DNA of 64,000 nucleotides from Terriglobia bacterium (GCA_965218585.1 CBDCLE010000024.1:288001-352000), one strand, 5' to 3'. Counted from the first letter of the stretch, positions 40,575 to 57,898 are shown. Translations and numbers: made by a program. The notes: a model not told the origin generated them from the letters alone.

Positions 40575-40958
40575 TCAGGGTCGGCTTCGAATCCAAGTCC
40601 ACCCGTCCGAAGGACGTTCGATGCCTTTCAAATGGATCTTGTGCTCCGCGGGGTTTCGACCCGGACTGCCGGTGAGGATTATCCAGTCGCCCGCCTTTAG
40701 AGTGTTTTCGTTCACTCCGGCTCTGCCGAGCCGGTTGACGTTGGCCCATTCTGCCGCAAACATCTGCATCTCACCGTCTTCGTCGGGTGCCATTACGTAA
40801 ATCCATGCGTGGGGACTTCTCAGGGTGAACTCGAAGAGCTCACCTTCTACCGAAACTAACCGATCTTCAAAATAGAAACGGGCGAACGAATGGTGTGCGT
40901 ATGCGGGGATGCCCACAGCGAGAGTGAGAAGAACCAGGCCCGTCAACAGACGTTTCAT
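40575..40958 (-). CDS. DUF6152-like small secreted protein, mature N-terminus HHS (copy 1)
   Basis: Signal peptide ending AYA, then HHSFARFY...RSPHAWIYV...AAEW...LKAGD. Confidence 0.8.
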   Translation of the reverse strand: MKRLLTGLVLLTLAVGIPAYAHHSFARFYFEDRLVSVEGELFEFTLRSPHAWIYVMAPDEDGEMQMFAAEWANVNRLGRAGVNENTLKAGDWIILTGSPGRNPAEHKIHLKGIERPSDGWTWIRSRP

Positions 40959-41082
40959 GCGCTTGCTCTCTTCAGCCAGCATGCTCTTAGCTTAATACCG
41001 ACCGAGGAAAACGGAAAAGCCAAAAACAGATAAATCCCTGCAGACGACCACTTAGGGAAGCGTCCGTTGCGGGGGAGTCTGC

Positions 41083-41901
41083 CTAATACCACTCGCGGAT
41101 TCGCACCTCGATGTCGCTCTCGCTGCCGAGAGCGTTCCGAAACACCTCGGGGTCCTGACCACGGAAGTGATAGGGATAGACGATTGAAGGTCTGAAGGCC
41201 TTCGCGCAGTCCGCCGCTTCCTCCGGCGTCATGGTGAAGGGCAGGTTCATCGGCAGAAAAGCGACGTCGATGTTCTCCAGCGCCTGTATTTCCGGGACAC
41301 ACTCGGTGTCTCCGGATACGAAAATCCGTCGTTCGCCCATCGTTACAACGTATCCCTGGCCCCGACCCATTGGGTGGTAGAGCCCTCCTTCTTCCGGCCC
41401 CCGAGTGAGGTTGTAAGCAGGCACGGCTTCGATTCCGATGATCGTGTCCGGAAGACGGATCGCGCTGTACTCTCCGTTTAAATACACGGTGGCGGTAGTG
41501 ATCGTGTTCCAGACCTCACGGGGCGCTATGGTGACCGCCCCCGGCTTTCTCACCGATTGAGCCGCGTCGGGATTCATGTGGTCGCCATGGATGTCGGTGA
41601 TCAGGACAATATCCGCTCTGCGGTCCTGCATTTCGGAAAAATCACCCACAGGATCCACGTAAACTCTTCTCCCGTTCAATTCCAGCATCAGGCTTGCGTG
41701 CCCGATCGGGGTGATCGTCACGTCGCCTTCCGTGCTTTCGATGACGTCGGATACTGTGGGATTGTGCGGTGGCGCGGCTTGGCCACCACGACCGCGCTGG
41801 GCGGCGGATAGTTCGCTGCAGGGAATCCAGATGAGCAGAGCGCCATCCAGCAGGACGAGGCCCAGGCTGAACAATCGATTCTTTCCCAGGACGTCTTTCA
41901 T
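41083..41901 (-). CDS. MBL-fold metallo-hydrolase (UPF0173-like)
   Basis: GHASL, VDP, ITDIHGDH, AVPAYN, HPMGRGQGY, SGDTE, PMNLPFTM, YPYH. Confidence 0.88.
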   Translation of the reverse strand: MKDVLGKNRLFSLGLVLLDGALLIWIPCSELSAAQRGRGGQAAPPHNPTVSDVIESTEGDVTITPIGHASLMLELNGRRVYVDPVGDFSEMQDRRADIVLITDIHGDHMNPDAAQSVRKPGAVTIAPREVWNTITTATVYLNGEYSAIRLPDTIIGIEAVPAYNLTRGPEEGGLYHPMGRGQGYVVTMGERRIFVSGDTECVPEIQALENIDVAFLPMNLPFTMTPEEAADCAKAFRPSIVYPYHFRGQDPEVFRNALGSESDIEVRIREWY

Positions 41902-42179
41902 GGTGTATCCCCTCTATTGGTCCAAATGAGCGGTTCGATAACTAGGTAACTTCCTGTAGCTATTCCATATATTTGGGAAAAGCATTGCAACGGGCCCCCG
42001 ATGGAGGGCTAGAGTTCACCGTTTACCGCACCGTGGCGGAGCAGTCAATGAAAAACCCTTTGAGCCCCCCCATAGAGTTGAACTTCGGAGTTTTTCCGAC
42101 CTTTCGAGCCCTTTCGGTTTCTCGGCCGAGTTCAGAGGCGATGTTGATCCGGGGTTGGATCCCGTCGCGCCTGCGCGGG

Positions 42180-42548
42180 TCATTCACCAGGAAGGAGCGT
42201 CAGCTCTGATCCAGAACACTGATTCCCCAAATACATCCCGTGCGCTTCGGGATTCCTCGCTGGACAACCGACAGCGGTTATGGCCCGTCCTTCTTCCCAC
42301 CCGGCCGCATTCGACATCTCGACACGGTTGCCCCCATAAATAGTCCAGACAACCGTTTCTCCATCCGGCTCGGTGACTTCAACCAGCATGTAGGAGTGGG
42401 GATTCACCAACCTCAGGTCCACCACTACCCCGGTGACTTCCTCGGTGCGATCCAGAAAATAGAACGTCGCCTGCGAGTGGTGCGCCTCGAGGGGAAGGGT
42501 GAGGATCAAGAAGATGCCCATCATAAGGACTGAAATTCCAACTTTCAT
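42180..42548 (-). CDS. DUF6152-like small secreted protein, mature N-terminus HHS (copy 2)
   Basis: Signal peptide ending LEA, then HHSQATFY...LVNPHSYM...G.PAR. Confidence 0.8.
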   Translation of the reverse strand: MKVGISVLMMGIFLILTLPLEAHHSQATFYFLDRTEEVTGVVVDLRLVNPHSYMLVEVTEPDGETVVWTIYGGNRVEMSNAAGWEEGRAITAVGCPARNPEAHGMYLGNQCSGSELTLLPGE

Positions 42549-42589
42549 TTCTCTATTCTCCTTAAGCATGATTCCAAAATTGTCTTCGC

Positions 42590-43396
42590 CTATTCATCGC
42601 TGTGTTTCGGCGGAAGCATCGTCAGCGGTGCTGCCGCAGAGGTGGGATCGCAATCCACAATCCAATTGATCTCCCGGTCGGTCCGCTCGTATTCGAGGGT
42701 TTCTGTATAAGGCCGTGTGAGGAAAACAGGATCCTCAACGGTCAGGACCAATCTTAGACGGTCGGGTCCGACGAGCGAATAACGTTCTGTGACGTGCTTG
42801 GCCCAGGAAGAGGGGACCTGCGACTGATAGTCCATTCCGTTGGGATCAAAGGTAAAGTTACGCGTCTCGATGACGAATTCGTCCTCCTCGTAGCGCCCGA
42901 TCGAATGGCCGTAGAAGCCGACGTCGCCCGGCGGTGGGAACCCCCGGCCATCTGTCCAGATCGTCCGGGCGACCGTATAGGCCATGCTTCCTTCGTTTTC
43001 CCAGATGACGCGGTCACCTCGCTGAACGAGCCGTATGGGGTTCATCCACCCGAAAGTGCTTGGAATGGATTCGGGTATGCAATAGAACTTGCCCTCGACA
43101 GGTTCGTCCTGGAATGCCAGCCACGCGCGCGTCCGTGCGTTGATATGATCGGACCAGTCGAACCTGCAACCGCGACGGGGCAACTGACGTACGTCTTCCT
43201 CGATGATGAAGAAGGGCCCGCACGCCGGCGGATTGGACCGGCTCACCCGATCCCAGGTCCCGCTGATGTCTGGTATTTCGCCGTTCTGGGCCTCGGACCG
43301 GGCCGAAAGGTTCGTCGCGCCCACCAGGACGGCAAGCGCCATGAAGAAACTCGTGATCACAGTTTTCCGTCGCCTGTCTTTAGATCTGCTTGTCAT
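42590..43396 (-). CDS. Secreted DxxGxW large-partner protein (copy 3)
   Basis: PDISGTW, YCIPES, RTIWTDGR, YGHSIGRY, TERYSL, VEDPVFLTRPY, DCDP. Confidence 0.82.
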   Translation of the reverse strand: MTSRSKDRRRKTVITSFFMALAVLVGATNLSARSEAQNGEIPDISGTWDRVSRSNPPACGPFFIIEEDVRQLPRRGCRFDWSDHINARTRAWLAFQDEPVEGKFYCIPESIPSTFGWMNPIRLVQRGDRVIWENEGSMAYTVARTIWTDGRGFPPPGDVGFYGHSIGRYEEDEFVIETRNFTFDPNGMDYQSQVPSSWAKHVTERYSLVGPDRLRLVLTVEDPVFLTRPYTETLEYERTDREINWIVDCDPTSAAAPLTMLPPKHSDE

Positions 43397-43433
43397 CTTT
43401 TAACTACCTCGACACTCCATCGCGAAGTTGCGA

Positions 43434-44237
43434 TTATTCGTCTGAATATTTCGGCAGCAGCATCAATAGCGGTGCTCCTGCGGACACTGGATCGCAGTCG
43501 GTAATCCACTGGATCTCCCGATCCGTGCGGTCATATTCGAACGTTTCTGTATAGGGACGGGTCAGAAACACGGGGTCTTCGACGGTCAAGACCATGCGCA
43601 GGCGGTTGGGGCCTATGAGCGAATAACGTTCGGTGATGCGTTTGGCCCAGGAGGAGGGCACCTGCGACTGATAATCCATTCCGTTGGGATCAAAGGTGAA
43701 ATTCTGCGTTTCGACGACCAATTCATCGCCTTCATACCGCCCGATCGAATGCCCATAGTAGGCCACGTCGCCGGGGGGAGGGAGGGGGCGTCCATCTGTC
43801 CAGAAAGTACGGACGACGGTCGCCGCCATGCTCGCCGAAGATTCGGTGACGACGCGGTCACCTCGTTGCGATATCCGTACGACTCCTCGCGCCAGCGTAC
43901 TCGGGATGGATTCCGGAATACAGTAGAACTTACCTTCGACGGGTTCGTCCTGAAACGCCAGCCACGCGCGAGTCCGCGCGTTGATATGATCGGACCAGTC
44001 GAATCTGCAGCCACGGCGGGGCAAACCTCGCTCGTCTTCTTCGATGATGAAGAAGGGGCCGCACGCGGGCGGTCGGGTGCGCTCTACGCCCTGCCAGTTG
44101 CCGCTGATATCCGGCAGGTCCCCTGCTTCGGCCGGTGACTGGGCCCTGAGCCCTACCGCACCCACAATCATCGAGACGCCGACCAGAGCAGCCGTAGCGA
44201 TTGTGTTCCAAGCGCCGAGATGAGATGAACGCGTCAT
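43434..44237 (-). CDS. Secreted DxxGxW large-partner protein (copy 4), tandem duplicate of 42590-43396
   Basis: PDISGNW, with long stretches identical to the neighbour (RGCRFDWSDHINARTRAWLAFQDEPVEGKFYCIPESIPST). Confidence 0.82.
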   Translation of the reverse strand: MTRSSHLGAWNTIATAALVGVSMIVGAVGLRAQSPAEAGDLPDISGNWQGVERTRPPACGPFFIIEEDERGLPRRGCRFDWSDHINARTRAWLAFQDEPVEGKFYCIPESIPSTLARGVVRISQRGDRVVTESSASMAATVVRTFWTDGRPLPPPGDVAYYGHSIGRYEGDELVVETQNFTFDPNGMDYQSQVPSSWAKRITERYSLIGPNRLRMVLTVEDPVFLTRPYTETFEYDRTDREIQWITDCDPVSAGAPLLMLLPKYSDE

Positions 44238-44501
44238 TTCTGTCCTTCCTCCTGTCACAAGCGCACTCCGCGCTGCACACGTCTCGCTCTTCCCAGAGCC
44301 GACCCGATCTCGTCGTGGTCGAACTGTTTACCGGATTGCTTCGTTACCAATACATCCCAAAAAGAATTCGTACGATTGGAGCAAATCTAACTACAGATTG
44401 GAGTTGTACGCAAGAAAAGTCTCCGATTCCCCTCAACCCGGGCCGGAGCTTTATCGACGATCCGGGGTAACGCGTTGTTCAATTACGCGCTCCCGGAATA
44501 A

Positions 44502-46850
44502 TCAGAAGCGCAGTTTCGTCTGAACGGTGAACTGGCGGCCCGGACCCAGTGCCGTTCCCGAAAAAACGCCGCTGAAGTTGATCACGTTGAGGTGATCGGT
44601 CGCGTTGCGCAGGTCGAACTGAACCGATACCGACCGGTCCTGCTGCTCCCACAAGAGCAGCCCCAGAGAAACATCGACGCTGAACACCGAGCGGAGCCGC
44701 CCCCAATCGAAATCAACCCGGTCGAGGATCGCCTGCGAGATCTGTTGTGTGTCGGCGTCGGGTTTGCTCCCGTCATCTTCACCCCCATCATCGTCCTCGA
44801 GTTCCACGGGCAACCCGCTGCCGTAACGGACTCCACTGGAAAACCAGAACCGTCCCTCCGGCTGGACACGGAATAACGCCGACACAGTGTTACGCTGATC
44901 CTGACTGATTGAGAAACGTTCCCCGGGGAGTCGTAATTCGTCGGCTTCGCCGCCTTCGATAAATAGTCCTCCCGTAACCGGTGAGGTCGCGTGCCCGATC
45001 ATGTTCGAGTAGCTAGCCGATGAAGACAGCCAACGCCAGGAGGGCAGATCGAGGCGCACCTCGGTGCCTGTAACACGGGCCGTGTTGAAACTGATAGGGA
45101 ACGATAAACCCGTGTTCAGAAAGACGTCGTCGTCCACATAATTCCGGAATGTCCGCCAGTACTGACTGATGTCCAGGCGCACCGCATCGAAGAATGGTTT
45201 GCCGAGGCCGACTTCAAAGAAATGACCGCGTGAGGCAGGAACGGCGACCGATTCGGAGACTTCGTCCAGTCCCAGCTCTCCTGCCGCACTGCTGAACAGG
45301 AGATTCTCAGTCGGCGGAGGTTGAAAGATGCGGTCATATGCCGCCCGTAATTGTATGTCCACCGCCGGAATCCAATAGCTGACGGCAACCCGCGGACTGA
45401 CGGCGTCATCATTGATCAGGAAATCATAGTGGTCATAACGGAGTCCGATGTTTGCCGCAAAGTTTCCTAAGCGCACCTGGTCCCGGACGAAAAGGGAAAA
45501 TTCCTGACTCTGCTTCTCGCCCTGAAAGTCTACATCGAAGCCCGGATGAGCTTCGGTTTCGCCGAAGCGGAATGCCTCTCGTATATCGCTGATTCGAACA
45601 TCTCCACCAAATTTCAGCGTATGACGCTCGTCCTCGAAGGTGAGGTCTGCTATCAGCGTCGACTCCCGGAAACCTCGATCCTGTTCGACGCGTACGGGTG
45701 TCGCCTGCGGATTGCTCCAGAGCCGGGCCGAGAGATCGCGATGCATGAATCGAACGGTTCCCAGGACATTGGTTGAAACAACTCGCTGGTAGTTCACCCC
45801 CAAGGCGGTCTCGCCGGAAAACCTGTCTTGTCGTTGGCCCGCTTCTTGCTGGGTGAGGTCGTTCGGGACCAGGAACCGGCTTTCACCAGTCCGCACATAG
45901 AACGAAATCCGATCCTGGGGAGTCAAATCGTGGTCAATCCGAAGATCAAAACCGCCCGTCGTCGCCTTGTTCGTGAAGTTTTCCCTCGACGGAGGGTCCA
46001 AGTAACGGTCGGTCGAACCACCCCGACTACCAAGAGAAATCGACGTGTTGTCGGTCCCAACCTGGTATCGAATGGATCCGGCGCGGTTGTCGAAGCTGCC
46101 GAGCTGGGTGTCGATCTCGATTCCGTGGCCGGGCGTGCCGACTCTACGGGTGTCGAGAGCTATGACACCACCGAGACGTCGACCATATTCGGCCGGGAGA
46201 CCACTGGTCATGACGTTAACGGCCTCAAATTCGGCCGTCTCGAAACCAGGAGCGAAGCCGATCGACCGGTTGTCATAGACGGGCATCCCGTCCACGACGT
46301 ACTGGGTGTCGTATTCCGATCCTCGAGGATGAAGGACCGCGTTAGCTTCTACCAGCCAGCCCGGTAGAGTCGTGACGACATCCACCGCGCTGCGGCCGAG
46401 GGTTGTCCCTGCAATCCTCTCGAGCTCGGTGCGGCCGATCTGCATCACTGCCGCGGGCTGAGCGATGTCCAGGAGAGGGGCCGTATCGGTCACCGTAATG
46501 GCAGTCGAGGTCCCTGCTACTTCCAGTGAGACAGTAATGTTGCGGGGAATGGCCGTCCGGATTTCAATCGTAGTGCCGAACTCTCGAAATCCGATTCGGC
46601 CGACCGTGAGGCGATACGTTCCCGGCCGCAGCCGTAGCATGCGCGCCAGCCCCTCCGGGCCTGTCTCGGCTCTGGCTTCGAATCGGGGATTCCGGCCTGC
46701 CAATTCGACATCCGCGAGAGGGAGGGCCAGCCCCTCGGAGTCGGTGACCAGAACGCGGATTTCTCCTTCCATAACCTGGGCCTGTGCGAGACCTGTTCCG
46801 AACAGAACGATAGAGAGCAATCGGATCCAAGTGCCGAGTTCTTTCATCAC
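44502..46850 (-). CDS. TonB-dependent receptor with an N-terminal carboxypeptidase-regulatory-like domain
   Basis: Signal peptide, PGTYRLTV, plug motif RG...YVVDGMPV, GLRYD, SPR, and a C-terminal GPGRQFTVQTKLRF. Confidence 0.88.
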   Translation of the reverse strand: MMKELGTWIRLLSIVLFGTGLAQAQVMEGEIRVLVTDSEGLALPLADVELAGRNPRFEARAETGPEGLARMLRLRPGTYRLTVGRIGFREFGTTIEIRTAIPRNITVSLEVAGTSTAITVTDTAPLLDIAQPAAVMQIGRTELERIAGTTLGRSAVDVVTTLPGWLVEANAVLHPRGSEYDTQYVVDGMPVYDNRSIGFAPGFETAEFEAVNVMTSGLPAEYGRRLGGVIALDTRRVGTPGHGIEIDTQLGSFDNRAGSIRYQVGTDNTSISLGSRGGSTDRYLDPPSRENFTNKATTGGFDLRIDHDLTPQDRISFYVRTGESRFLVPNDLTQQEAGQRQDRFSGETALGVNYQRVVSTNVLGTVRFMHRDLSARLWSNPQATPVRVEQDRGFRESTLIADLTFEDERHTLKFGGDVRISDIREAFRFGETEAHPGFDVDFQGEKQSQEFSLFVRDQVRLGNFAANIGLRYDHYDFLINDDAVSPRVAVSYWIPAVDIQLRAAYDRIFQPPPTENLLFSSAAGELGLDEVSESVAVPASRGHFFEVGLGKPFFDAVRLDISQYWRTFRNYVDDDVFLNTGLSFPISFNTARVTGTEVRLDLPSWRWLSSSASYSNMIGHATSPVTGGLFIEGGEADELRLPGERFSISQDQRNTVSALFRVQPEGRFWFSSGVRYGSGLPVELEDDDGGEDDGSKPDADTQQISQAILDRVDFDWGRLRSVFSVDVSLGLLLWEQQDRSVSVQFDLRNATDHLNVINFSGVFSGTALGPGRQFTVQTKLRF

Positions 46851-46989
46851 GGTTGCCGTTTTTTTTCGATTCGTCTCAATTGCTTGCTGTCGAGGTGTTC
46901 CATCTGAGTTTGGGGATGACGTGTCCTCGAACGTCGAATTTCTTCTCTTCCCAATATCCTATCAGTTGGGAAGAGCTGCGTATTCTCGT

Positions 46990-47285
46990 TTAGGAGCCGG
47001 CTGAAAGAAAGAAAATTAGCTTTCGTGTTGAATCGGCTGAGTGAGAACTTCGGACACTCGATTCAAACAGTTCGGACGGGGTGAACGGTTTTTGAAGGAG
47101 TTCTGATGGGGGTATCTGGTGGATGGAATCGTCTGCATAGCCCGACATGAAAGCGACTCTCGTGGTTGGATTTTTCCGGACCCACTCGCTCGTGAACTCG
47201 GGCCCGTTCATGCCGGGCATTATGATGTCGCTTAGAATCAGGTCCACGGATCTTTCCGAGTACAGGGCCAACGCCTGCGCCGGTA
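46990..47285 (-). pseudogene. N-terminally truncated response-regulator receiver domain
   Basis: ALAL...VDLILSDIIMPGMNG...FMSGY...LQKPF is present; the first strand and acidic pair are missing and there is no good start. Confidence 0.65.
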
Positions 47286-47328
47286 AAGTGGACACGCCTT
47301 GAGTCAATCGAAGGATGGACAAGAAGGG

Positions 47329-48285
47329 CTATCCCTTCTTGATCGTATCTCCAGTCTGTACACCCCTGTAGAGCAAGGATTCTTCCATGCCGGCTTCCAG
47401 GCACCGCTCAGCGAAGTTTTTCGGTGTCTGAGAAAATTCCTCCCCGACCCAGTCGTCATCCACGATATCGGAGTCGAAGTCGTACTCGGCGCCTCCGCCC
47501 GACGGATTGAGGAAATACCAGAAGTAGCAGGAGGAAATCGGATGGCGTCCAGGCCCCAGCATCGTTTTCCAACCCCTGCGGGTCATGTTCAGACCCCCGC
47601 CGAACAGCTCGTGAATGTTGGCGACCTCGAAGGCGAGGTGATGGAATCCCAGCTTTTCGCCCCTGCCTTCAGGGTTGAGCAGGAACAGATTGTGGTGGCT
47701 CTTAGATGCGCCGCCCCGGAGGAAGTAGGCGACTCCCGGATAGCTGTCGCTGACCTTGAATCCCAGGCGATTCACGTAGAAATCGAGTTCGACTTCCGTG
47801 TCGGTCACCATGAAGACAACGTGCGTCATCTCCATAGGTTGAGCGGATTTGTAGAATTTCGCGCGACGGTTCAGTCGCCCCACACGGCCCGGCATGTTGA
47901 ATTCCGGATCCGGCGCCCTCACCTGGCGGCAACGCGACACGCGGAAACCGAGTCCAAACCCCAGGGGATCGATTGTGTGGATCGTGCCGTCGTTGTCTCG
48001 TGTAACGGTCCGATCCCGTGATAACTCTTCTTCCAGAGCCTCTAGATCATCCGCGGAGCGGACTCCAAACACAGATTCCCGGACTGTCGGACCCGGTTCG
48101 ATCGCGACCGGTAATTCGGTGTCGCCTTCGAGGCGTACTTCTACAGTAGATTCATCCTGGGCAGCGAACAGCAATCGCGAAGTGTCTTCGTCTCGGAGCG
48201 AAAGACCAAAATCCTCCCAGAACTTTCCAGCCCTCGACAGGTCGTCGACACCATAGGTCACTCGATCGAGAGTCGTCACATTCAT
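47329..48285 (-). CDS. VOC family protein (extradiol dioxygenase/glyoxalase-like)
   Basis: Two VOC modules; THVVF, HHNL, HHLAFEV, GPGRHPISSCYFWYF.NPSGGGAEY. Confidence 0.85.
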   Translation of the reverse strand: MNVTTLDRVTYGVDDLSRAGKFWEDFGLSLRDEDTSRLLFAAQDESTVEVRLEGDTELPVAIEPGPTVRESVFGVRSADDLEALEEELSRDRTVTRDNDGTIHTIDPLGFGLGFRVSRCRQVRAPDPEFNMPGRVGRLNRRAKFYKSAQPMEMTHVVFMVTDTEVELDFYVNRLGFKVSDSYPGVAYFLRGGASKSHHNLFLLNPEGRGEKLGFHHLAFEVANIHELFGGGLNMTRRGWKTMLGPGRHPISSCYFWYFLNPSGGGAEYDFDSDIVDDDWVGEEFSQTPKNFAERCLEAGMEESLLYRGVQTGDTIKKG

Positions 48286-48345
48286 GTTCTTTTGTTCCGT
48301 TGTAATGTTGGAATCTGGCAGGTTTCGACCGAGACGTTCAACGGT

Positions 48346-50426: not shown

Positions 50427-50431
50427 TTCTT

Positions 50432-50540
50432 CTGTAGGTGCGGGAGTTCATTAGCATGGGCCCCCCGTCCTTGGGCCGGTCCCCCCATGCTTGAGCGCCG
50501 GTTAATTTCGGGGCCGTGCCGTCATAGACCGCACCGACAG
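50432..50540. repeat. Degenerate GTAG-type REPIN
   Basis: CTGTAGGTGCGG ... GTCATAGACCGCACCGACAG between convergent genes. Confidence 0.6.
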
Positions 50541-50547
50541 GGAAGAG

Positions 50548-50814: not shown

Positions 50815-50856
50815 TCCCGCATCGGGCCGAGGTGCCAAGGGAAAGGGGGTCGGTCT

Positions 50857-51096
50857 CTAGTGATAGTGGCCGTGTTCGGGTGACCAGACGGCGGCCGGCG
50901 TGTCCTCGGCCTCGCTCGTGGCCACGGCTCTGACGAATCCGATGGTACCAATGAGCAGAAGGCTGCCTAAGAGGAGAACAAGAGCCCTGGACGTCGAGTT
51001 GTTGGCTGTCGCGGCTGTACTGCCACAGCAGTTTTTGTATTTCTTGCCGCTGCCGCAGGGGCATGGCTGGTTTCGACCGACTTTTTCTTTTTTCAT
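50857..51096 (-). CDS. SEC-C motif single-pass membrane protein with a C-terminal WSPEHGHYH
   Basis: [19 protein letters not shown], one TM helix and a His-rich C-terminus. Confidence 0.85.
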
Positions 51097-51187
51097 AAGT
51101 AACCTTTGCTCCGATTCAGAAAGCCCACTGGAAGCTTATAAGAGCAACAGGGCGCGGTCAATCAGAACGCGCCCTGTTCTATTTGGA

Positions 51188-53296
51188 CTACCGGGCCAGC
51201 GGATCGGGCCGTACCTGGAAATGTACGACAAGCGGCCTGTTTCCCTGACCGCCTTCCATGAGCCAGGGTGTCCGATCACCTTCCGAGACCCACAACCCGC
51301 GGCCCTTCCAGCCGGCATCCGGGTCGTCTATGCGCCCGTCAAACCCCTTGCTGTAGAAGCCCATCGGGTATGGAATACGGAGGGTCACGAACTCGCCGTC
51401 CACAAGAGCGTGAACGCCGTCAGCGAGGTTCCCCGTGGCGATCGGGACGTTCTCACCGAGTCCGGAAGAATTACGCTGGTCGACCCAGGTGTAGTAGCTG
51501 GACTCGACGCTGAACTCCGGCAAGTCGTCGAAGCCGGGCCCGGGCAGATCATGCAGGGTCCAGCCTTCCTGACAGTGGTCTCCGGTGGCATCCGGACCAT
51601 TCAATGGCCCTGTGCATTTACTGCGATCAAACTCACCCATGTGTCCGCTTCCAAGTGACGCCCAGACCACGCCGTTACGGTCGATGTCCGCGCCTCGGAC
51701 CCCGAACCCCGGGGCCGGAGGACGATAGATCTCTCCGAGCCCGGTTTCCGGATCGTATCGGACGACGGCGCCCCTAGCCTGGAAGGCGTTCGATCCCCAG
51801 ATAGAACCGTCAGCGGGGTTCGGCATTACGGCGTAGAAGCCCGCGTTGATTCGTGTGTCCATCTGTGGGTTTGCGGGTTCATCCGGTTCGGTCCAGTCGT
51901 CCCGTTGGCCATTACCATTGGTATCCAGAATGAGGGGCGACCAGCCCTGTGAAGCTTCGCTGTCGCCGGTCTCGTCATACATCCTGGTGTCGAACCAGCC
52001 GACCACGGGGCCACCGCCACTGGTCCAGAGCGTGTTGTTCTCGTCCTCGGCGAACTGAAGATGGTGCGTCCCGTAACAGGTGTCTATGGGCGTATATTCT
52101 CCGGTATCCGGTTCGTACACGGCCAGCTGCCGTCCCGAGCGGGCGTTGGGAAACAGTTGGGCGGATGGATGATCGGAACCTTCCTGGCAGAAATCCGGAT
52201 TGTTCGGTCCCCGGACTCTTGCGGTGTACCAGACACGGCCGTCTTGGTCGAACATCGGGTTGTGGGCGTTTGCCTGGCTGTCCCATATGATCTCCTCACC
52301 CCAATAGGGTGAAGCCGCATACGGAGGTGTGCTCGCCGTTGTCGGTGTATCCGGGTCCAGTACCCGAGCCCTCAAGCTGGTGTCCGTGTTGGCGACCGGG
52401 TCAAGGATCGGGAAATCGTCCGTGCTGAGCTCCGGGGCCCCATAGATCCGGCCATACGGGTTGAGGGTGGGGTCGCGGCGGTCGGTGGATGCTAGATCGT
52501 GCATATAGACCGAAGGGCTGCCCCAGTCCCGGACCGTCGCGACAACGTTCCGCTCGATCCCGGACGGTCTGTCCGGCACGGTCTCGGGTATCTCGCCGGC
52601 AGCAATACGATCGGTCCAGTCCGCCAGGTACTTGATGGGAATGCCCTGCAGGCGGCCGGTCACCTGTCCCAGCATCTGTCCGCCGGCCTGCCCGGATTGA
52701 ATCCGGCGCGTCCAGGCATCTTCGGAGGATTCGAACTCTCCCAGGCTTTCCGGTATCGTGCGGGTCGATGCCTGACCTAGCTGGTGGCAACCGATGCAAC
52801 CCATGTTCTTCATGAAAGCGAGATACGAGTTCATGCCCCCCGGAATGTTTTCCACTTCACTTTCTTCGGGCAGGTCCATCATGGAGTACCAGTGACTGGC
52901 AGGGTAGACCTGGGCGGCCGTAGCGGCGTCAGCAGCAACAACGGCGGTAAGGTCGAGCATGTCTCCGGGTGAGGCGGCCACCTTCGCTGAGTCGCTCAGA
53001 CCATAGCCGCGAACCCAGATGTCGTAGTCTGCGCTCGGGAGATCGGGAACCACGTAGCGTCCCTCGTCATCGGTCACCACGATCCGGGCGAATCGTGTTT
53101 CAAATTCTTCTGTTTCCGCGATGACCCAGACGCCGGCTTCCGGGCCGTTGGCGCTGGTGACGACACCCCCGATATCGTCGTTATCGATCTGGAGTGTGGA
53201 ACTTTCCGCCCCCTGACATCCCGTCATGACGACGACCATCAGAATACCCAGAGCAAAAACGGTGCTTTTACAGTACAAGCCGTTGCCTATCCTCAT
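51188..53296 (-). CDS. Lipoprotein: carboxypeptidase-regulatory-like domain, CxxCH cytochrome c motif and Vgb-like beta-propeller
   Basis: Lipobox-like VMTGC; GPEAGVWVIAET; VVTDDEGRY; WVRGYGL; CIGCHQLG; HNPMFDQDGRVW; GTHHLQF; RGADIDRNGVVW. Confidence 0.8.
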   Translation of the reverse strand: MRIGNGLYCKSTVFALGILMVVVMTGCQGAESSTLQIDNDDIGGVVTSANGPEAGVWVIAETEEFETRFARIVVTDDEGRYVVPDLPSADYDIWVRGYGLSDSAKVAASPGDMLDLTAVVAADAATAAQVYPASHWYSMMDLPEESEVENIPGGMNSYLAFMKNMGCIGCHQLGQASTRTIPESLGEFESSEDAWTRRIQSGQAGGQMLGQVTGRLQGIPIKYLADWTDRIAAGEIPETVPDRPSGIERNVVATVRDWGSPSVYMHDLASTDRRDPTLNPYGRIYGAPELSTDDFPILDPVANTDTSLRARVLDPDTPTTASTPPYAASPYWGEEIIWDSQANAHNPMFDQDGRVWYTARVRGPNNPDFCQEGSDHPSAQLFPNARSGRQLAVYEPDTGEYTPIDTCYGTHHLQFAEDENNTLWTSGGGPVVGWFDTRMYDETGDSEASQGWSPLILDTNGNGQRDDWTEPDEPANPQMDTRINAGFYAVMPNPADGSIWGSNAFQARGAVVRYDPETGLGEIYRPPAPGFGVRGADIDRNGVVWASLGSGHMGEFDRSKCTGPLNGPDATGDHCQEGWTLHDLPGPGFDDLPEFSVESSYYTWVDQRNSSGLGENVPIATGNLADGVHALVDGEFVTLRIPYPMGFYSKGFDGRIDDPDAGWKGRGLWVSEGDRTPWLMEGGQGNRPLVVHFQVRPDPLAR

Positions 53297-53474
53297 CTCG
53301 TTCTCTCCCTCAGGTGGATTTGGTTCCGCCGATTCTATCATTCCGGTGGGTTCGGGCGTGTGTGTTAGTGAACGGTTGTTTTTCCCTCTCCGCGATGATA
53401 TCCACTGTACTTGAGTGTGCCAAGTTTGGCAGAAAGCAGGTTACTGGCCCCATCTCGAAAAAGGACTGTGAATC

Positions 53475-53848
53475 GTGACGCTGGGAGATCTGAACAAACA
53501 TAAATACGTGGCGCTGGAGACGTATAAGAAGAGCGGTCAAGGCGTGAGCACGGCGATGTGGGTCACGGCCAAAGCCGACGCTTTGTACATGCTGACGGAC
53601 GCGAACAGCTGGAAGGCGAAACGAATCCGGAACAACGACCGGGTTCGCCTGGCCCAGAGTGACTCGAAGGGAAAACTGTGAAGGGTGAGTGGGTGGACGC
53701 CAAGGCCCGGCTTCTTGATGATCCTGAGATACTGGCGGCACAGAAGCGGCGAGCCGTGGCAAAATACGGCGTGATGGTCCGATTGATGTCTCTTATTGTG
53801 CGACTGACCGAACCCGGGCGAGTCGATGTCGTGATTGAGATTCAGTGA
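53475..53848 (+). CDS. PPOX-class (F420-dependent) oxidoreductase with a frameshift near 53675
   Basis: KYVALETYKKSGQGVSTAMW...SWKAKRIRNNDRVRLA. After a 1-nt shift it continues VKGEWVDAKARLL...AKYG...VVIEIQ*. Confidence 0.75.
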
Positions 53849-55757
53849 ATAGGTGGAAACAGATGAATGTGATGACAAGGCTGAAAGATGTTTACGGAGC
53901 GAAGATGTGGAAAGTCTCCTTTGAATCCGCCACGAGCTTGGTCCTCGTGTCGATTCTCAGTGTAAGCATATCTCCGGTGGCTCTTGCCCAGGGCTTGAAC
54001 GCTGGACCAGGGTCGAGCGAGGAGCAGCGGGCACGCATGGAGTTGCCGGAGGTTGAATCTCGGGCCCGGGATTTCGCGACTGCCGAAGAACACTACGACT
54101 ACCTGCTGGAGGAAGCTGACGGCGGCACCCGGCACACGATGGCCACCATACCGGTCTGGGACGGACTCTGGGGTTCGGGGAACAACACGATGCCCGGCCT
54201 GTTCTTAGAAGATGGATCGCTGGCGATTGCCATGAGCCCAGGCGGAACTGTGAAAGAAGACGTCTTGACTCCTGCCTATGAGCAGCAGTTTCGGGAACGT
54301 CGAGCGGAACTGGAACAGTACGGCGAACAGCTCTACGACCACCTGACCAACTGTGAGTACCCCGGTGCAGCGCGCTGGCTCTGGGAGCCGTATATCAAGG
54401 AGTTCGTCAACACGCCGAAACAGACTTGGATGCTAAACGACATGATGAACGAGACCCGCCGCGTCTATATCGGTGCCGAACACGTCAACATCGAAGGAGC
54501 ACACTCGGCGACCGGCGACAGTATCGGTTTCTGGGATGATGACAAGCTGGTCCTGTGGACCAAATGGATTCAACCGGTCGACTACCTGCGCGGCCTACCG
54601 TTGACCAGCAATCAACTCGAGATGGTAGAAAGCTGGCAACAGATCACGGGAGAGGACGGGGCCAGAATGTTGGTCACCCAGGTGACGTTTTACGATCCCA
54701 TCGGACTGGTCAGGCCACAGTCGGCCGTTTACAGTCACAATTCCCGCCCGGACCTTGAGGAATTCGGTGTCCGGATCCGAAACTGGGAATGCCCGACCAG
54801 CACCAACTCTTACCTAAGGCGTGTTAACACTAATGAGCATGAATGTTTTATAATCAGGCATGGAGATCACACAGGAGCAGTATTGTCGCATCGAGCCGGA
54901 ACTGCCGCGTCAGCGGGGCAACGTCAGTCTTTCGAACCTGACGGTCTTGAACGCCATTTTGTATGTGGCTGAGCAGGGCTGCAAGTGGCGCGGTCTGCCC
55001 AAGCGCTTTGGCAACTGGCACACCATCTACACCCGGATGAACCGCTGGTCCAAGAACGGGGTGCTCGACGCCGTCTTCGAAAAAACTCCAGCGCGAGCAA
55101 CTGGTGCGCATCCGGGTGGAAGCCGTTTCGATGGACTCGACCATTGTGAAGGTGCATCCCGACGGCACGGGAGCGTTAAAAAAAACGGTCCGCAAGCGAT
55201 CGGCAAATCCCGCGGTGGATGGACCACCAAGATTCATCTGGTTGCCGCGAATGCTCGAACGGCGATAACGTTTGCGCTCTCGCCCGGCCAAGCGCACGAC
55301 GCCCCGCAGGGCCGCGATCTGCTCGCCGGCCTGGGGCCGTTGCCCGCGCCGCTGCCGCTGCTGATGGACCGTGCCTACCAGGACGACCAGACCCGCCAAT
55401 TGGCTCTGGATTTTGGGTGGATTCCCGTCGTGCCGCCCAAGCGCAACCGCCTGGAGCCGTGGGAATACGACCGCGTGCTCTACCGCCGCAGGAACGAAGT
55501 CGAGAGGCTCTTCCGCCGACTCAAGGGTTTTCGGCGTATCTTCTCCCGTTTCGATAAACTCGACGTCATGTTTCCTCGCCTTCCTTCACTTCGCACTCAT
55601 CGTCGAGGCACTACGTTAGTGTTAACACGTCCTAGCTGAGGACGGGACAACGCAGTTTTACCTGCCGGGAGATCTCGAATACAAGGATCCGCGCGGGTTT
55701 ACGGATTTTCCGGATATCCCGGGTCAGTCGCTCAATCCTATTTTCGATGCGCAATGA
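53845..55757 (+). pseudogene. Secreted DxxGxW large-partner protein (copy 5), interrupted by an IS5-family element
   Basis: PVWDGLW, NCEYPG, ETRRVYIG, GDSIGFWD, FYDP, WEC. Removing the IS and one TA restores SYLAEDGTTQFYLPGD...IFDAQ* ending at 55757. Confidence 0.82.
54817..55632 (+). mobile_element. IS5-family element (IS427-group-like)
   Basis: TIRs AGGCGTGTTAACACTAA and GGACGTGTTAACACTAA (rc); TA duplication in a CTAG target. Transposase 54860-~55619 with GCKWRGLP..FG.W.TIY, SRGGWTTKIH, DRAY, YRRRNEVERLF; A8 slippery site at 55178-55185. Confidence 0.92.
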
Positions 55758-55797
55758 GTCACTGAGGGCAAAGAGCCAAATGGAGAGGAAGACGACG

Positions 55798-56262
55798 ATG
55801 AAAAACCTAATGCTTGCCGCATTCGTGATCGCCACCTTGTGCGTGGCTGGTACGGCCACGGGCCACCATTCGTTCGCGATGTTTGATACAGCCCAGGAAA
55901 TGTTGATTGAGGGACGTGTTGTGGACTGGCACTACAACAACCCGCATAGTTGGCTGTATGTCGAAGCTCCCGATGAAAACGGTGAAATGCAGACCTGGAG
56001 TATTGAGGGGGCGGCACGGGTGCATGCTGCCCGTCAGGGCGTGACCGGTAACACGTTTCGAAAAGGTGAATTTGTCAGGGTGGTGATGAACCCTCTTCGG
56101 GACGGGCGACGCGCCGGTGCGGTGTGCATCGTCGTCAAAGAGGACGGAACCATTGCACAGCCGAATGACGGGACATGTATCGCAAACGACGTTATCGACC
56201 GGTGGGAGTCAAACGGGTGGTTTGAGACGACCGGTCATCTCGACGTTCATCCTGCCGACTGA
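55798..56262 (+). CDS. DUF6152-like small secreted protein, mature N-terminus HHS (copy 3)
   Basis: Signal peptide ending ATG(ly), then HHSFAMFD...YNNPHSWLYV...WSIEG...NPLRDG. Confidence 0.85.
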   Translation: MKNLMLAAFVIATLCVAGTATGHHSFAMFDTAQEMLIEGRVVDWHYNNPHSWLYVEAPDENGEMQTWSIEGAARVHAARQGVTGNTFRKGEFVRVVMNPLRDGRRAGAVCIVVKEDGTIAQPNDGTCIANDVIDRWESNGWFETTGHLDVHPAD

Positions 56263-56427
56263 TTTCCCTCGGGGACGGACCCCCTTGAGCCGATAACTGC
56301 CGTTTCCCAAACGAGGGCAGATCCGGCCAGCTCGTCGGGCCAAGTCAGGCAGGACGCCGGACATATCGCGGTCAATACCCTCAAATGAATGTGCCGTTCT
56401 GAACAGGTACTGGGCCTACCCAATTTG

Positions 56428-56457
56428 TTGACTGCTTGTTGCCGGCACCAATATACT
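56428..56457 (+). promoter_or_regulatory. Putative sigma70 promoter
   Basis: TTGACT-N18-TATACT upstream of 56531. Confidence 0.4.
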
Positions 56458-56530
56458 TCCGCCAAATCTACCTGACAGAGTACGTTTACTGAACGACAGG
56501 GGAATCTGAGCCCAGGTAAGGGGGTGTCTT

Positions 56531-56833
56531 ATGTCAGCGAATCGACGTGAGTTTTTCAAGGCAGCGGGACTGGCAGCGACAGGCGCGGTGGCGGCAACGA
56601 GCCCGCTATCTGCCGGGGTTGAATCTGAACCACAGGCGCAACTGGCTCCTGAGACTGTCGGAGCCAAACTTCGTGAGCTGCTCGAGACAGATACAACGTC
56701 GATTACGGAATCAGACAGCTCTGATTACTGTCCTTGTCCCCCCGTCCACACGGCACACTTGTCCCCGAGCAGGGCGGGTCATTGGGACTCGCCCCGCACC
56801 TCGAGCATCGGTGAAAAACCGAACCACGGGTGA
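56531..56833 (+). pseudogene. Tat-signal protein fragment
   Basis: RBS, then MSANRREFFKAAG twin-arginine signal. The sequence stops looking protein-like after about AKLRELLE, so it is probably a truncated gene. Confidence 0.5.
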
Positions 56834-56875
56834 ACATACCGGACGCCTCAACACCATGTATAAGGGAGTGAAAAG

Positions 56876-57715
56876 ATGGATCATGCCAGTAGTTTCAGAA
56901 CAGTAGCCAAGAGGGCTCGGGGCGCGATGATCTCTTTTTTCGTGGCAGCCGCCGTGCTGGTAGGCCCCATGGACATTGCAGCTCAGAATCCCACGATCTC
57001 TCCGGTCGGGTCGGATTTTCTTGGGACCTGGCGCAAGACGAGCCCGGGCGGAAACTGCGGTTCCCTCCTAGACCCTTTCGGCGGCCCTCGTGAGTTTTGT
57101 CAGTTTCCGGTCGATCAACTCGAACCGCTTTTGAACGGAAGGGCCCGGGCATGGATCGAGTTTTCCGACGAAACCTTGTCGCCGAGATGGGCCTGCGTCG
57201 CGGCGGGAATCCAAACCGTGTTGACCGATGCCGGGGGCTACCTTTGGACCATATCCACGAGGCCTGATGCGGTCGTGCAGTCCTTCGAGCAGTCCAACTG
57301 GGTGCGTTACATCTGGATGGACGGCCGGGGCCATCCGCCTGCTACCGACATCTTTTATCACGGACATTCGATCGGCCGCATGGACGGCAACGTGTTGGTC
57401 GTCGAAACTACGAATTTTACGTTTGATCCGGATGGCTGGGACGACCAGTCCCACATCGCCACTTCGCATCTGAAGAAGTTGACCGAGCGCTACATACCCA
57501 CCGGCACGGACACTGTGGAGATTGAATTCACCGTCGAGGATCCTGTTTTTCTGAAGGCGCCTTTTACGTGGAGCCATACGTATGGAAAGACCGATCAACA
57601 GTTCATCGGTTCCTGGGACTGCGATCCCGAGGTTGGCTTGCGGGAACTGTATCAGTCGATTCCGAGCAGGTACGAGGACGACACGACGCCAGCGAGGTAT
57701 ATAAACAGCTTCTAG
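56876..57715 (+). CDS. Secreted DxxGxW large-partner protein (copy 6)
   Basis: SDFLGTW, WACV, RYIWMDGRGHP, YHGHSIGR, LVVETTNF, TERY, VEDPVFLKAPF, WDCDP. Confidence 0.85.
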   Translation: MDHASSFRTVAKRARGAMISFFVAAAVLVGPMDIAAQNPTISPVGSDFLGTWRKTSPGGNCGSLLDPFGGPREFCQFPVDQLEPLLNGRARAWIEFSDETLSPRWACVAAGIQTVLTDAGGYLWTISTRPDAVVQSFEQSNWVRYIWMDGRGHPPATDIFYHGHSIGRMDGNVLVVETTNFTFDPDGWDDQSHIATSHLKKLTERYIPTGTDTVEIEFTVEDPVFLKAPFTWSHTYGKTDQQFIGSWDCDPEVGLRELYQSIPSRYEDDTTPARYINSF

Positions 57716-57727
57716 CGGGAGGGTAGA

Positions 57728-57898
57728 GTGGCGAAACTTTTGGTTCCCACAATTTTGGCCGTTACCTTTCTTGTTCTGGCCGTCCCGATCCAGGCACACC
57801 ATTCGATCACTGCACTCTGGTTTACGGACCGAAGCATTCCGATCACCGGGCTTGTGCGTTCGTACGGACAAGAAGAACTCGAAAGAAACCTGGACTAG
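57728..57898 (+). pseudogene. DUF6152-like HHS protein (copy 4), truncated next to the IS1595 remnant; not in the ORF track
   Basis: GGAGGG RBS, then GTG: MAKLLVPTILAVTFLVLAVPIQA|HHSITALWFTDRSIPITGLV..., stopping before any NPH motif. Confidence 0.78.

Follow-up and report, generated by a model that had tools for sequence, protein, structure and literature searches.

Why should four small secreted proteins encoded in one stretch of bacterial DNA all begin, as predicted, with the same two histidines? An earlier note, made from the DNA of a Terriglobia bacterium alone (GCA_965218585.1, CBDCLE010000024.1:288001-352000; 64 kb, the window), had drawn attention to them and had proposed a His-brace-like metal site with the free amino terminus among its ligands. 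Here we ask to which family these proteins belong, how far the motif is conserved, and what a free N-terminal histidine might do there.

Four DUF6152 paralogues in the window

All four open reading frames with His-His-Ser junctions exist as described (Table 1). Cleavage is predicted at AYA/HHSF in c1, LEA/HHSQ in c2, ATG/HHSF in c3 and IQA/HHSI in c4 (the slash marks the junction), with the His1 codons at 40893-40895 and 42480-42482 on the minus strand and at 55864-55866 and 57797-57799 on the plus strand. The positions that the earlier note had attached to the motifs (40958, 42548, 55798 and 57728) are those of shorter start codons and not of the His codons. The longest c3 frame starts at 55747, and its database cluster begins at the Met of 55798. 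A six-frame scan of the window for HH[ST] finds 18 places. The residues ahead of the motif are 80-90% apolar or small in c1-c4; two other places reach 75-80%, one within an 864-aa protein and one in a 110-aa ORF.

The three complete copies, c1 (E 6.7e-19, 68.2 bits), c2 (E 2.1e-12, 47.4 bits) and c3 (E 1.5e-27, 96.0 bits), match the Pfam family DUF6152 (PF19649) above its gathering threshold of 27 bits, and the repetition of the motif therefore reflects homology, not chance. The fourth copy has no Pfam match in the profile search because insertion-sequence debris cuts it off after some 23 mature residues; its mature part reads HHSITALWFTDRSIPITGLVRS, followed by unrelated residues and a stop. 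It does align along its signal peptide and HHS start. All four are paralogues of this uncharacterised family, on which our literature search found no publication.

Each complete copy carries (S/N)-P-His 27-28 residues past His1. A later Glu is kept in c1 and c3 and replaced in c2 by Tyr, the sole Tyr at this column among 144 aligned sequences; c2 also lacks a further conserved His, having Tyr at the column that is His88 in the c1 subfamily. The (N/S)PH about 27 residues on, the Glu in two copies and the Tyr in copy 2 had all been reported beforehand, and correctly.

Table 1. Features of the 64-kb window, numbered from its first nucleotide
Feature	Position	Strand	Remarks
Distant companion paralogue	9637..10572	+	311 aa; profile E 5.1e-32; no Pfam match
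Distant companion paralogue	11611..12603	-	330 aa; profile E 3.3e-38; no Pfam match
DUF6644-like membrane protein	39987..40490	-	84 bp downstream of c1; PF20349 E 3e-5
DUF6152 copy c1	40575..40982	-	135 aa; shorter start 40958; predicted mature HHSF from 40895
Secreted metallo-beta-lactamase (MBL)-fold hydrolase	41083..41901	-	between c2 and c1; Lactamase_B_3 E 2.8e-19
DUF6152 copy c2	42180..42569	-	129 aa; predicted mature HHSQ from 42482; divergent
Companion	42590..43396	-	268 aa, secreted; 20 bp upstream of c2; predicted calycin/FABP-like barrel
Companion	43434..44258	-	274 aa; tandem duplicate, 78% identical to 42590-43396; profile E 1.1e-45
TonB-dependent-receptor-like outer-membrane barrel	44502..46850	-	CarboxypepD_reg + OMP_b-brl_4; heads co-directional cluster
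Companion of c3, 5' part	53845..54813	+	profile E 1.1e-96; broken by insertion sequence
IS5-family insertion sequence	54809..55640	+	splits c3 companion; transposase DUF4096 + DDE_Tnp_1
Companion of c3, 3' remnant	55641..55757	+	last ~41 codons; ends 40 bp before c3 start
DUF6152 copy c3	55798..56262	+	154 aa from ATG 55798; predicted mature HHSF from 55864
Companion	56876..57715	+	279 aa; 12 bp upstream of c4; profile E 3.3e-47; no Pfam match
DUF6152 copy c4, truncated	57728..57898	+	signal peptide + ~23 mature residues
Insertion-sequence debris truncating c4	57895..61079	-	IS1595-type fragment first
IS256/Mutator-family transposase	58224-59516	-	within debris behind c4
DDE_5 transposase	59760-61079	-	within debris behind c4
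Companion paralogue	61422..62387	+	321 aa; behind insertion-sequence debris; profile E 7.6e-35; no Pfam match

Conserved residues and predicted fold of DUF6152

DUF6152 comprises at least 6,230 cluster representatives at E<=0.001, in Proteobacteria and Acidobacteriota. The domain starts with HH(S/A/G) in 144 of the 150 best of these 6,230; five of the other six lack the N-terminal region, and one full-length protein (P0023) has NHS. This is the unbiased count for the His-His start; the rows of alignment A2 (144 sequences) were selected for the motif, which in part accounts for the invariance of H1 and H2 there. As read from the sequences, the motif follows directly on an AxA-type signal peptide in 142 of the 144 representatives. 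Of 143 junctions counted, one of which (P0036) is spurious, 122 have A, 11 G and 8 S at position -1, and at position -3 A occurs 114 times and V 14 times. The junction counts bear out, family-wide, the claim of a secreted protein with His1 at the cleavage site: cleavage is predicted exactly before His1, and the secreted protein, all four window copies included, is predicted to start with this His once mature. When clustered at 90% identity, 109 of 112 c1-type and 117 of 119 c3-type proteins carry HHS; in the other five the gene call is either cut short at the N-terminus or begins with unrelated sequence.

Downstream, PH lies exactly 28 residues past His1 in 109/109 HHS-bearing c1-type clusters. 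In A2, P27 and H28 are invariant, D8 is found in 130 sequences, and the Glu48 column holds E in 139/144 (the rest being 2 Q, 1 Y and 2 gaps). Trp30 and Trp45 are conserved as well, and the c1 subfamily (105 sequences) conserves H1, H2, S3, P28, H29, E49 and H88, the last in 103/105. The residues that the earlier note had picked out, His1, His2, the PH His and the Glu, are the most conserved of DUF6152.

On what scaffold do these residues sit? The AF2 model of the c3 mature chain (pLDDT 94.9) has the order b1-b2-b3-helix-b4-b5 (E11-23, E30-36, E42-48, H52-57, E70-78, E84-92), and Foldseek matches it to OB-fold proteins only (SSB/Rim1, PriB, LysRS N-domain), at a probability of ~1.0 and with E no better than 2.6e-3; no solved relative was found for this model. 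The model of DUF6152 is thus a closed OB barrel of five strands, its helix lying between b3 and b4, in agreement with the small beta (OB-like) fold proposed at the outset.

Residues 1-10 of the c3 model have a mean pLDDT of 82, with residue 7 in a beta-bridge, and the N-terminal segment is therefore modelled as docked. Pro-His is located in the b1-b2 loop and Glu48 at the end of b3. Direct-coupling analysis (437 sequences, Meff 242) recovers the hairpins b2-b3 and b4-b5. The top couplings of the N-terminal segment are with the conserved loop between b4 and b5 (D8-L78, D8-G81, M6-L78 and S3-G85, at ranks 4, 7, 15 and 34), not with His28 or Glu48, invariant columns such as His28 giving no coupling information; F7-G49, beside Glu48, appears at rank 71. 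Since the b1-b2 loop of a simple OB fold lies at the opposite edge from where the N-terminal segment enters b1, convergence of His1/His2 with His28 and Glu48 is plausible, not given.

The companion barrel and the gene neighbourhood

Does DUF6152 act alone? A second gene, the companion, lies within 300 bp of 89 of the 103 DUF6152 domains found in 78 genomic loci, on the same strand in 84 of these 89. As HHSF[AS]MFD served as the seed pattern for collecting the loci, these sample mainly the c3-type subfamily. In the window the companion precedes c2, c4 and c3, at the spacings given in Table 1, and c1 is the exception, with the MBL-fold gene ahead of it. The companion of c3 is split by an IS5-family element with 25-nt terminal inverted repeats (54809-54833 and 55616-55640): homology of the frame to its orthologues ends at residue 325, near nucleotide 54814, and the translated 3' remnant matches the companion C-termini of orthologues in four loci (L001, L003, L009, L011). 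Behind c4, the IS1595-type transposase fragment is on the strand opposite to c4, and the companion paralogue beyond the debris has no adjacent DUF6152. Paralogous modules are numerous, with four DUF6152 copies and seven companion paralogues in the window and up to three pairs per 12-kb locus elsewhere.

Fused ORFs occur in seven loci, not all of them independent (L020 and L023 are close relatives), and always run signal peptide, HH[SG]-DUF6152, then companion; P0083 and P0093 have the same architecture. In unfused pairs the companion comes first in 63 cases versus 14. Fusion in this commoner order would bury His-His inside the chain, and the asymmetry is an evolutionary argument that the free DUF6152 N-terminus matters. 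Furthermore, a mirror-tree comparison of 78 cognate pairs gave r = 0.883; 500 full shuffles peaked at 0.214, and swapping partners within a locus matched 0.883 in only 3 of 500 trials. By adjacency, fusion and co-divergence, DUF6152 is tightly coupled to its companion.

What is this partner? The companion at 42590..43396 has no Pfam or NCBIfam match and no PDB sequence match. Its AF2 model is of moderate confidence (pLDDT 76.6, pTM 0.79). Foldseek ranks FABP5/CRABP2/CRBP1 best (E 9.3e-6, TM by target ~0.64), and the top 50 of 177 PDB matches at E<=1e-3 are all FABP/CRABP/CRBP-type. As modelled, the companion resembles, in the form of a secreted antiparallel barrel, the fatty-acid/retinoid-binding calycins, with which it aligns and shares a conserved N-terminal G-x-W motif (G14 and W16 at least 90% conserved). 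Unlike these proteins, it is secreted, has roughly double their length (268-375 aa) and carries a conserved Cys pair as well as conserved R112/E172/D190; sequence identity is only 10-14%.

Copper-homeostasis families (CopC, CopD, PCuAC, multicopper oxidase, CusF, HMA) account for 0 of the 138 immediate neighbour ORFs in the 78 loci, and no copper gene was found among the scanned ORFs of the window. Module neighbours include esterases, hydrolases, Fe-dependent oxygenases and dehydrogenases, as well as MFS and TonB-dependent transporters, PepSY_TM and ModA-like binding proteins. The esterases, oxygenases, dehydrogenases and MFS and TonB-dependent transporters among them suggest organic-substrate uptake or oxidative processing rather than metal homeostasis. 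MBL-fold neighbours recur in three other loci, and the DUF6644-like family adjoins modules in six others, the PF20349 match in the window (24.7 bits) being under the 27-bit cut-off. The barrel at 44502..46850 has weak TonB-receptor NCBIfam matches, far under cut-off. Two Met-zincins are encoded elsewhere in the window.

A putative metal site at the free amino terminus

How might these elements work together? The best reading of DUF6152 is probably a His-brace-like metal site at its free amino terminus. Signal peptidase I would cut directly before His1, and the small OB barrel would therefore begin NH2-His-His-Ser. The free alpha-amine, the imidazole(s) of His1/His2, His28 and Glu48 could make up a mononuclear site, most likely for copper, in the ligand cleft typical of OB folds, either as a His brace (NH2 + His1 + His28), in which the invariant His28 would complete a T-shaped N3 set, or as an amino-terminal Xaa-His chelate. 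The metal domain may then work on, or with, a hydrophobic small molecule that the companion barrel holds within the periplasm. That DUF6152 is an exported OB-fold protein with such a putative site, acting with the companion barrel, we consider somewhat likelier to be right than wrong.

Canonical His-brace proteins have beta-sandwich folds, and LPMOs carry a second-sphere Glu/Gln, of which the E-to-Q replacement at the Glu48 column (2/144) is reminiscent. The copper His-brace proteins (LPMOs AA9-AA17, CopC, PmoB/PmoF1, X325, Bim1) are like DUF6152 in being secreted, with an N-terminal His unmasked by signal-peptide cleavage and a second, distant His, as described in PMC10952591, which ascribes secretion and such unmasking to all known His-brace classes. 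They differ in partner protein and gene context, and no sequence or structure similarity of DUF6152 to canonical His-brace proteins was found. Searched against AA9-17, CopC, PCuAC, DUF1775 and CusF, the DUF6152 copies give no Pfam match even at E<=10; this, together with an OB fold in place of a beta-sandwich, places DUF6152, by sequence and predicted fold, outside the LPMO, CopC, PCuAC and YcnI families. As described in PMC8424229, YcnI of Bacillus subtilis (DUF1775, an ex-DUF) is a mono-histidine-brace Cu(II) protein whose conserved His at the signal-peptide junction binds Cu(II) by amine and imidazole, along with a Glu ~20-50 residues past His1 and a water, with a conserved Trp nearby. DUF6152 has comparable features in His1, Glu48 and Trp30/Trp45, but its predicted fold is OB and not cupredoxin-type, its modules are not placed beside CopC, CopD and PCuAC genes as YcnI is, and, unlike in YcnI, both His2 and Pro-His are invariant. 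An invariant His2 is no feature of known His braces.

Two OB-fold proteins also invite comparison. CusF, a periplasmic Cu(I)/Ag(I) chaperone, is likewise small; it binds metal, through internal His/Met/Met and Trp and not the N-terminus, whereas the DUF6152 site is putative, and there are no cus genes among the 138 immediate neighbour ORFs of the modules. The TIMP N-domain functions by metal chelation through its free N-terminal residue, but the metal, unlike that proposed for DUF6152, belongs to another protein. TIMPs are eukaryotic, with Cys1 and several disulfides, and no sequence relation of DUF6152 to them was found.

Could the conserved residues do without the amine, or without a metal? 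Three invariant His with Glu and Asp correspond to ligand sets that are common for Zn and non-haem Fe, the c1 subfamily offers His88 in addition, and hydrolases and Fe-dependent oxygenases are among the neighbours; all this would suit a 3-His-1-Glu site of imidazoles and carboxylate only (Zn, Fe, Ni, Mn), the His-His start being structural. Such a site is unlikely, for it leaves unexplained both His1 as the first mature residue in 144/145 informative representatives and the N-terminal position of DUF6152 in all fusions, against the prevailing gene order. The docked modelling of the N-terminal segment, its co-variation with the b4-b5 loop and the strong partner coupling would also fit a cleaved N-terminus that binds no metal and turns back to act as a plug or to form a buried salt bridge from its amine to Glu48/Asp8, or else docks into the companion barrel, with the histidines serving ligand binding, catalysis or pH sensing. 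A salt bridge, however, needs the amine alone and would not call for two invariant His and a Pro-His that never varies, and there are precedents for metal binding by His/His/His/Glu at an N-terminus so unmasked; we hold this account to be quite unlikely.

If a metal is bound, is it bound for delivery or on behalf of another protein? CopC/YcnI-type trafficking, in which the N-terminal His site hands metal to an importer or cuproenzyme and the companion is accessory, draws on the unmasked His with conserved Glu and Trp, as in YcnI, on the DUF6644/DUF2214-like small membrane protein that follows c1 and adjoins other modules, and on the PepSY_TM, ModA-like and TonB-dependent neighbours. Yet copper-homeostasis families are absent from the immediate neighbours, many paralogous modules per genome are typically found in substrate-diversified systems and seldom in metal homeostasis, and the obligate partner has a lipid-binding-type fold, all of which leaves trafficking decidedly unlikely. 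Very improbable, finally, is a TIMP- or serralysin-inhibitor-like role, in which the N-terminal residues would chelate the catalytic metal of a partner MBL-fold hydrolase or zincin. An OB fold that depends on a free N-terminus is reminiscent of the TIMP N-domain, and the window encodes both an MBL-fold protein between c2 and c1 and the Met-zincins, but the conserved neighbour is the calycin-like companion and not a metalloenzyme, MBL neighbours are rare, and DUF6152 has no TIMP-like Cys1 or disulfide pattern.

The preferred free-amino-terminus site can be carried one step further, though the step is a fairly unlikely one: DUF6152 would be a new, very large OB-fold His-brace class and, with a calycin-presented substrate, a periplasmic copper oxygenase or peroxygenase acting on hydrophobic molecules that would enter via TonB-dependent and MFS transporters. 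If this were true, such a His-brace enzyme system would have no relation to LPMOs or pMMO, be it by fold, by partner or by substrate. To our knowledge, copper His-brace proteins (LPMOs, pMMO, CopC, YcnI) are few and all of beta-sandwich fold; they are important for biomass and methane oxidation and for copper handling. DUF6152 sets beside them an invariant mature His-His start on a different fold, with an obligate lipid-binding-type partner. The proteins being small and soluble, metal binding through their amino terminus could be tested at little cost. If it does bind metal through its amino terminus, it would give the His-brace class a new scaffold and possibly a new chemistry, and two large orphan families, DUF6152 and its companion, would gain a function at once.

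DUF6152 copies and mobile elements in the window

As the earlier note had proposed, the window encodes four small secreted proteins, here c1 to c4, whose predicted mature chains begin with His-His-Ser. The positions it attached to them are real start codons, the shorter ones, and the His1 codons lie elsewhere (table). The complete copies c1, c2 and c3 belong to Pfam PF19649 (DUF6152), with E values of 6.7e-19, 2.1e-12 and 1.5e-27, respectively. The other sequence features it had reported are also present: (S/N)-Pro-His lies 27-28 residues past His1 in all three complete copies, and a later residue is Glu in c1 and c3 and Tyr in c2. Among 144 aligned sequences, c2 is the sole one with Tyr at this Glu column, and it also has Tyr at the subfamily His88 position. 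It thus stands apart at two conserved sites, either because the copy is decaying or because its site is a variant with phenolate ligands. The fourth copy, c4, is a stump of ~23 mature residues, after which the frame enters unrelated sequence adjoining an IS1595-type fragment, an IS256-family transposase and a DDE_5 transposase.

A second unnamed family, missed by the earlier note, regularly adjoins DUF6152. Seven members of this family, the companions, were detected in the window with a companion profile. Only c1 has no preceding companion; it comes after a secreted MBL-fold gene and before a DUF6644-like membrane protein, in a co-directional cluster whose leading gene encodes a TonB-receptor-like barrel. 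In the companion gene split by an IS5-family element, the final 41 codons restart at 55641 and stop 40 bp short of the ATG at 55798, which supports this codon as the true start of c3. Since each half can still be recognized, the insertion looks recent.

Coordinates of DUF6152 copies, companions, mobile elements and other genes in the window
Feature	Position	Strand	Remarks
c1	40575-40982	-	ORF; signal peptide directly before His-His-Ser; His1 codon 40893-40895
c2	42180-42569	-	ORF; signal peptide directly before His-His-Ser; His1 codon 42480-42482
c3	55747/55798-56262	+	ORF; signal peptide directly before His-His-Ser; His1 codon 55864-55866
c4	57728-57898	+	ORF; signal peptide directly before His-His-Ser; His1 codon 57797-57799
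Two companions	upstream of c2		In tandem; 78% identical to each other
Companion	12 bp upstream of c4		
Companion of c3	upstream of c3		Split by IS5-family element
Three companions			No adjoining DUF6152; include the two distant paralogues listed next
Distant companion paralogue	9637-10572	+	
Distant companion paralogue	11611-12603	-	
323-aa ORF	10643-11614	-	Between the distant companion paralogues; no Pfam family
Complete IS5-family element	54809-55640		25-nt terminal inverted repeats; inside companion gene of c3
IS5 transposase	54860-55639		DUF4096 + DDE
Piled-up mobile-element remains	57866-61100		Truncate c4; separate c4 from companion gene at 61422; the three transposases below are all on the - strand
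IS1595-type transposase fragment	57895-58080		C-terminal fragment
IS256/Mutator-family transposase	58224-59516		
DDE_5 transposase	59760-61079		
717-aa secreted protein	51188-53341	-	Divergent to split companion gene
100-aa ORF	56531-56833	+	Between c3 and next companion gene
Large DUF5117 + DUF4953 protein	12731-15319	+	Met-zincin
Large DUF5117 + DUF4953 protein	25823-28051	-	Met-zincin

The 717-aa protein carries a CarboxypepD_reg match below the Pfam cut-off, a C-x-x-C-H haem-c motif (GCIGCHQLG) and no further Pfam domain. The 100-aa ORF, which may be what is left of a gene, carries a twin-arginine-type signal (RREFFK) and lacks any Pfam domain. The window also contains two pirins, a TrkAH potassium uptake pair, a TonB gene and a GAF-PAS adenylate/guanylate cyclase.

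Conservation and predicted fold of the DUF6152 domain

DUF6152 is a very large family, with 6,230 cluster representatives found by exhaustive HMMER search (E<=0.001). Is the His-His start a general property of this family? The domain starts with HH(S/A/G) in 144 of the best 150 representatives, bearing out the proposed conservation of His1 at the cleavage site, and in 142 of these 144 the motif lies behind a hydrophobic signal peptide. The junctions resemble one another at position -1 (A 122, G 11, S 8) and position -3 (A 114, V 14), the 143 counted including one protein, P0036, that is not a true junction. The remaining six of the best 150 comprise a full-length relative starting NHS (P0023) and five N-terminal fragments or frame-shifted calls. 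At the level of 90%-identity clusters, HHS is found in 109 of 112 c1-type and 117 of 119 c3-type proteins; the others are gene calls either truncated N-terminally or starting with unrelated sequence. In all 109 c1-type HHS clusters, the PH histidine lies exactly 28 residues past His1. In the 144-row alignment, Pro27 and His28 are invariant, the Glu48 column reads E 139, Q 2, Y 1 (c2) and gap 2, and position 8 is Asp in 130; the invariance of His1 and His2 there is partly by construction, since rows were chosen for having the motif, and 144 of 150 is the unbiased figure. His88 is kept in 103 of 105 c1-subfamily sequences.

With the 144-row alignment as input, AlphaFold2 models mature c3 (pLDDT 94.9, pTM 0.88) as b1(11-23), b2(30-36), b3(42-48), helix(52-57), b4(70-78) and b5(84-92), followed by C-terminal helices. 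This predicted order of elements is that of an OB fold and agrees with the small OB-like beta fold suggested earlier. Foldseek searches of the PDB with this model returned OB-fold proteins only (Rim1/SSB, PriB, LysRS N-domain); the E values, no better than 2.6e-3, and TM scores by query of <=0.48 indicate that there is no solved relative. In the model, the b1-b2 loop carries His28, b3 ends with Glu48, and the b4-b5 loop contains the conserved P-L-R-D-G motif; in OB folds generally, these regions line the canonical ligand cleft. Residues 1-10 have a mean pLDDT of 82, with a beta-bridge at residue 7. Mean-field direct-coupling analysis (437 sequences, Meff 242) recovers the b2-b3 and b4-b5 hairpins and shows couplings between the N-terminal segment and the b4-b5 loop (D8-L78 rank 4, D8-G81 rank 7, M6-L78 rank 15, S3-G85 rank 34), with a weaker F7-G49 coupling at rank 71. 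The N-terminal segment therefore appears docked on the barrel.

Relatives, where named in the sources, are called DUF6152 or hypothetical. Among relatives of c1 (P0286, P0295, P0308), one source (JGI) names some DUF6152 proteins 'exonuclease VII large subunit', and two clusters bear a precomputed tRNA_anti OB-fold Pfam match; these labels seem to have been carried over because the proteins share an OB fold. Sequence and profile searches of the PDB yielded no informative match to DUF6152, the companion or DUF6644, and relaxing Pfam to E<=10 added only a weak DUF2214 match for the three. The best named ESM Atlas lead outside the family, MamS/MamX (0.80), was below a meaningful level and was dropped. 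Searches of a paper library found no paper on DUF6152, PF19649, DUF6644 or PF20349, and none combining OB-fold, N-terminal histidine and periplasm.

The companion family and its pairing with DUF6152

The companions have no Pfam, NCBIfam or PDB sequence match, NCBIfam likewise has no model for any of the DUF6152 copies, and all the closest ESM Atlas neighbours of the companion are unnamed clusters. An AlphaFold2 model of moderate confidence (pLDDT 76.6, pTM 0.79) matches fatty-acid, retinoic-acid and retinol-binding proteins (177 matches at E<=1e-3, best E 9.3e-6; TM by target ~0.64). Conserved features are an N-terminal G-x-W, two Cys, R112, E172 and D190. No DUF6152 lies near the distant paralogues at 9637-12603, and companions thus also occur alone.

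Using the motif HHSF[AS]MFD (30-row alignment), 78 genome loci were fetched, mainly of the c3-type subfamily. Profile searches detected 103 DUF6152 and 100 companion domains in these loci. A companion lies <=300 bp from 89 of the 103 DUF6152 domains (<=100 bp from 84), on the same strand in 84 of the 89: upstream in 63, downstream in 14 and fused in one frame in seven. Eight DUF6152 domains have no companion in their locus, three of them (L017, L054, L073) ~1 kb or less from a contig end. One cluster of 38 ORFs from the loci was dropped as probably an antisense frame of module genes; L044, the only member checked, overlaps these genes on the opposite strand.

Does the free N-terminus matter? 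All seven fused ORFs (L010, L020, L023, L026, L046, L064, L078) read signal peptide, HH[SG]-DUF6152, companion, as do database proteins P0083 and P0093, whereas the companion comes first in 63 of the 77 unfused same-strand cases. A read-through fusion in that usual order would place His-His inside the chain. By our own arithmetic, the chance of seven out of seven under random gene order is ~(14/77)^7, or ~7e-6, which overstates the case because the fusions are non-independent (L020 and L023 are close relatives). The order of the fusions against the usual gene order is evidence that the free N-terminus matters. A search for longer fused relatives gave only two proteins: P0270, a companion-DUF6152 read-through that keeps its internal signal peptide and is probably an assembly or gene-call artefact, and P0271, whose tail is unrelated and low-complexity.

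The pairwise distances of cognate pairs correlate (r = 0.883, 78 pairs; maximum of 500 full shuffles 0.214), and partner swaps within multi-module loci reached the observed correlation in 3 of 500 trials. Therefore, modules duplicate and diverge as units, a pattern compatible with physical interaction and no proof of it.

Gene neighbourhoods and possible functions

What might such a module do? The best-supported reading is of an unmasked metal site with a calycin-type partner: signal-peptide cleavage would expose the amino-terminal His-His, which with His28 and Glu48 would form a candidate mononuclear site on an OB-fold scaffold, and the domain would act together with the companion as ligand carrier. 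We lean slightly towards metal binding through the N-terminus; copper specifically is a possible identity that we would favour less, and an oxygenase or peroxygenase role seems unlikely. The closest precedent is YcnI/DUF1775, where a conserved His at the signal-peptide junction was found to bind Cu(II) with Glu and water (PMC8424229). Secretion and unmasking by cleavage are likewise shared by every known His-brace class (PMC10952591). Unlike these precedents, DUF6152 has its own fold, an invariant second His, an obligate partner and a distinct gene context, and by Pfam and fold it belongs to no known His-brace family. The papers that the library listed for uncharacterized histidine braces concern only LPMOs, YcnI and other unrelated histidine-brace proteins.

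Alternatives are a metal site built from side chains only, an N-terminus that serves as a metal-free plug or salt bridge, a CopC-like chaperone and a TIMP-like inhibitor. Copper-homeostasis families account for 0 of the 138 ORFs immediately flanking modules; this result and the number of paralogous modules found within single genomes point away from metal trafficking. The five syntenic SAR86-type loci (L042, L043, L053, L055, L056) each have a weakly matching YtkA-like protein on the opposite strand (E 7.8e-4, below cut-off), which was not accepted as copper evidence; all of them except L043 also have an MFS transporter. Some c3-type modules form sub-groups with conserved neighbours of their own: L008, L009 and L010 have a PepSY_TM protein downstream, the latter two also a di-haem peroxidase nearby, and L012-L015 have a ModA-like binding protein upstream.

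The 138 flanking ORFs are heterogeneous. They include carboxylesterases, other alpha/beta hydrolases, MFS transporters, TonB-dependent receptors, PQQ dehydrogenases, SDRs, oxygenases (VOC, LigB, TauD, 2OG, RPE65), MBL-fold proteins, PepSY_TM, ModA-like binding proteins, DUF6644 and a di-haem peroxidase. Together with the paralogy of the modules, these neighbours point towards modules that handle or transform organic substrates, probably hydrophobic ones, in the periplasm.
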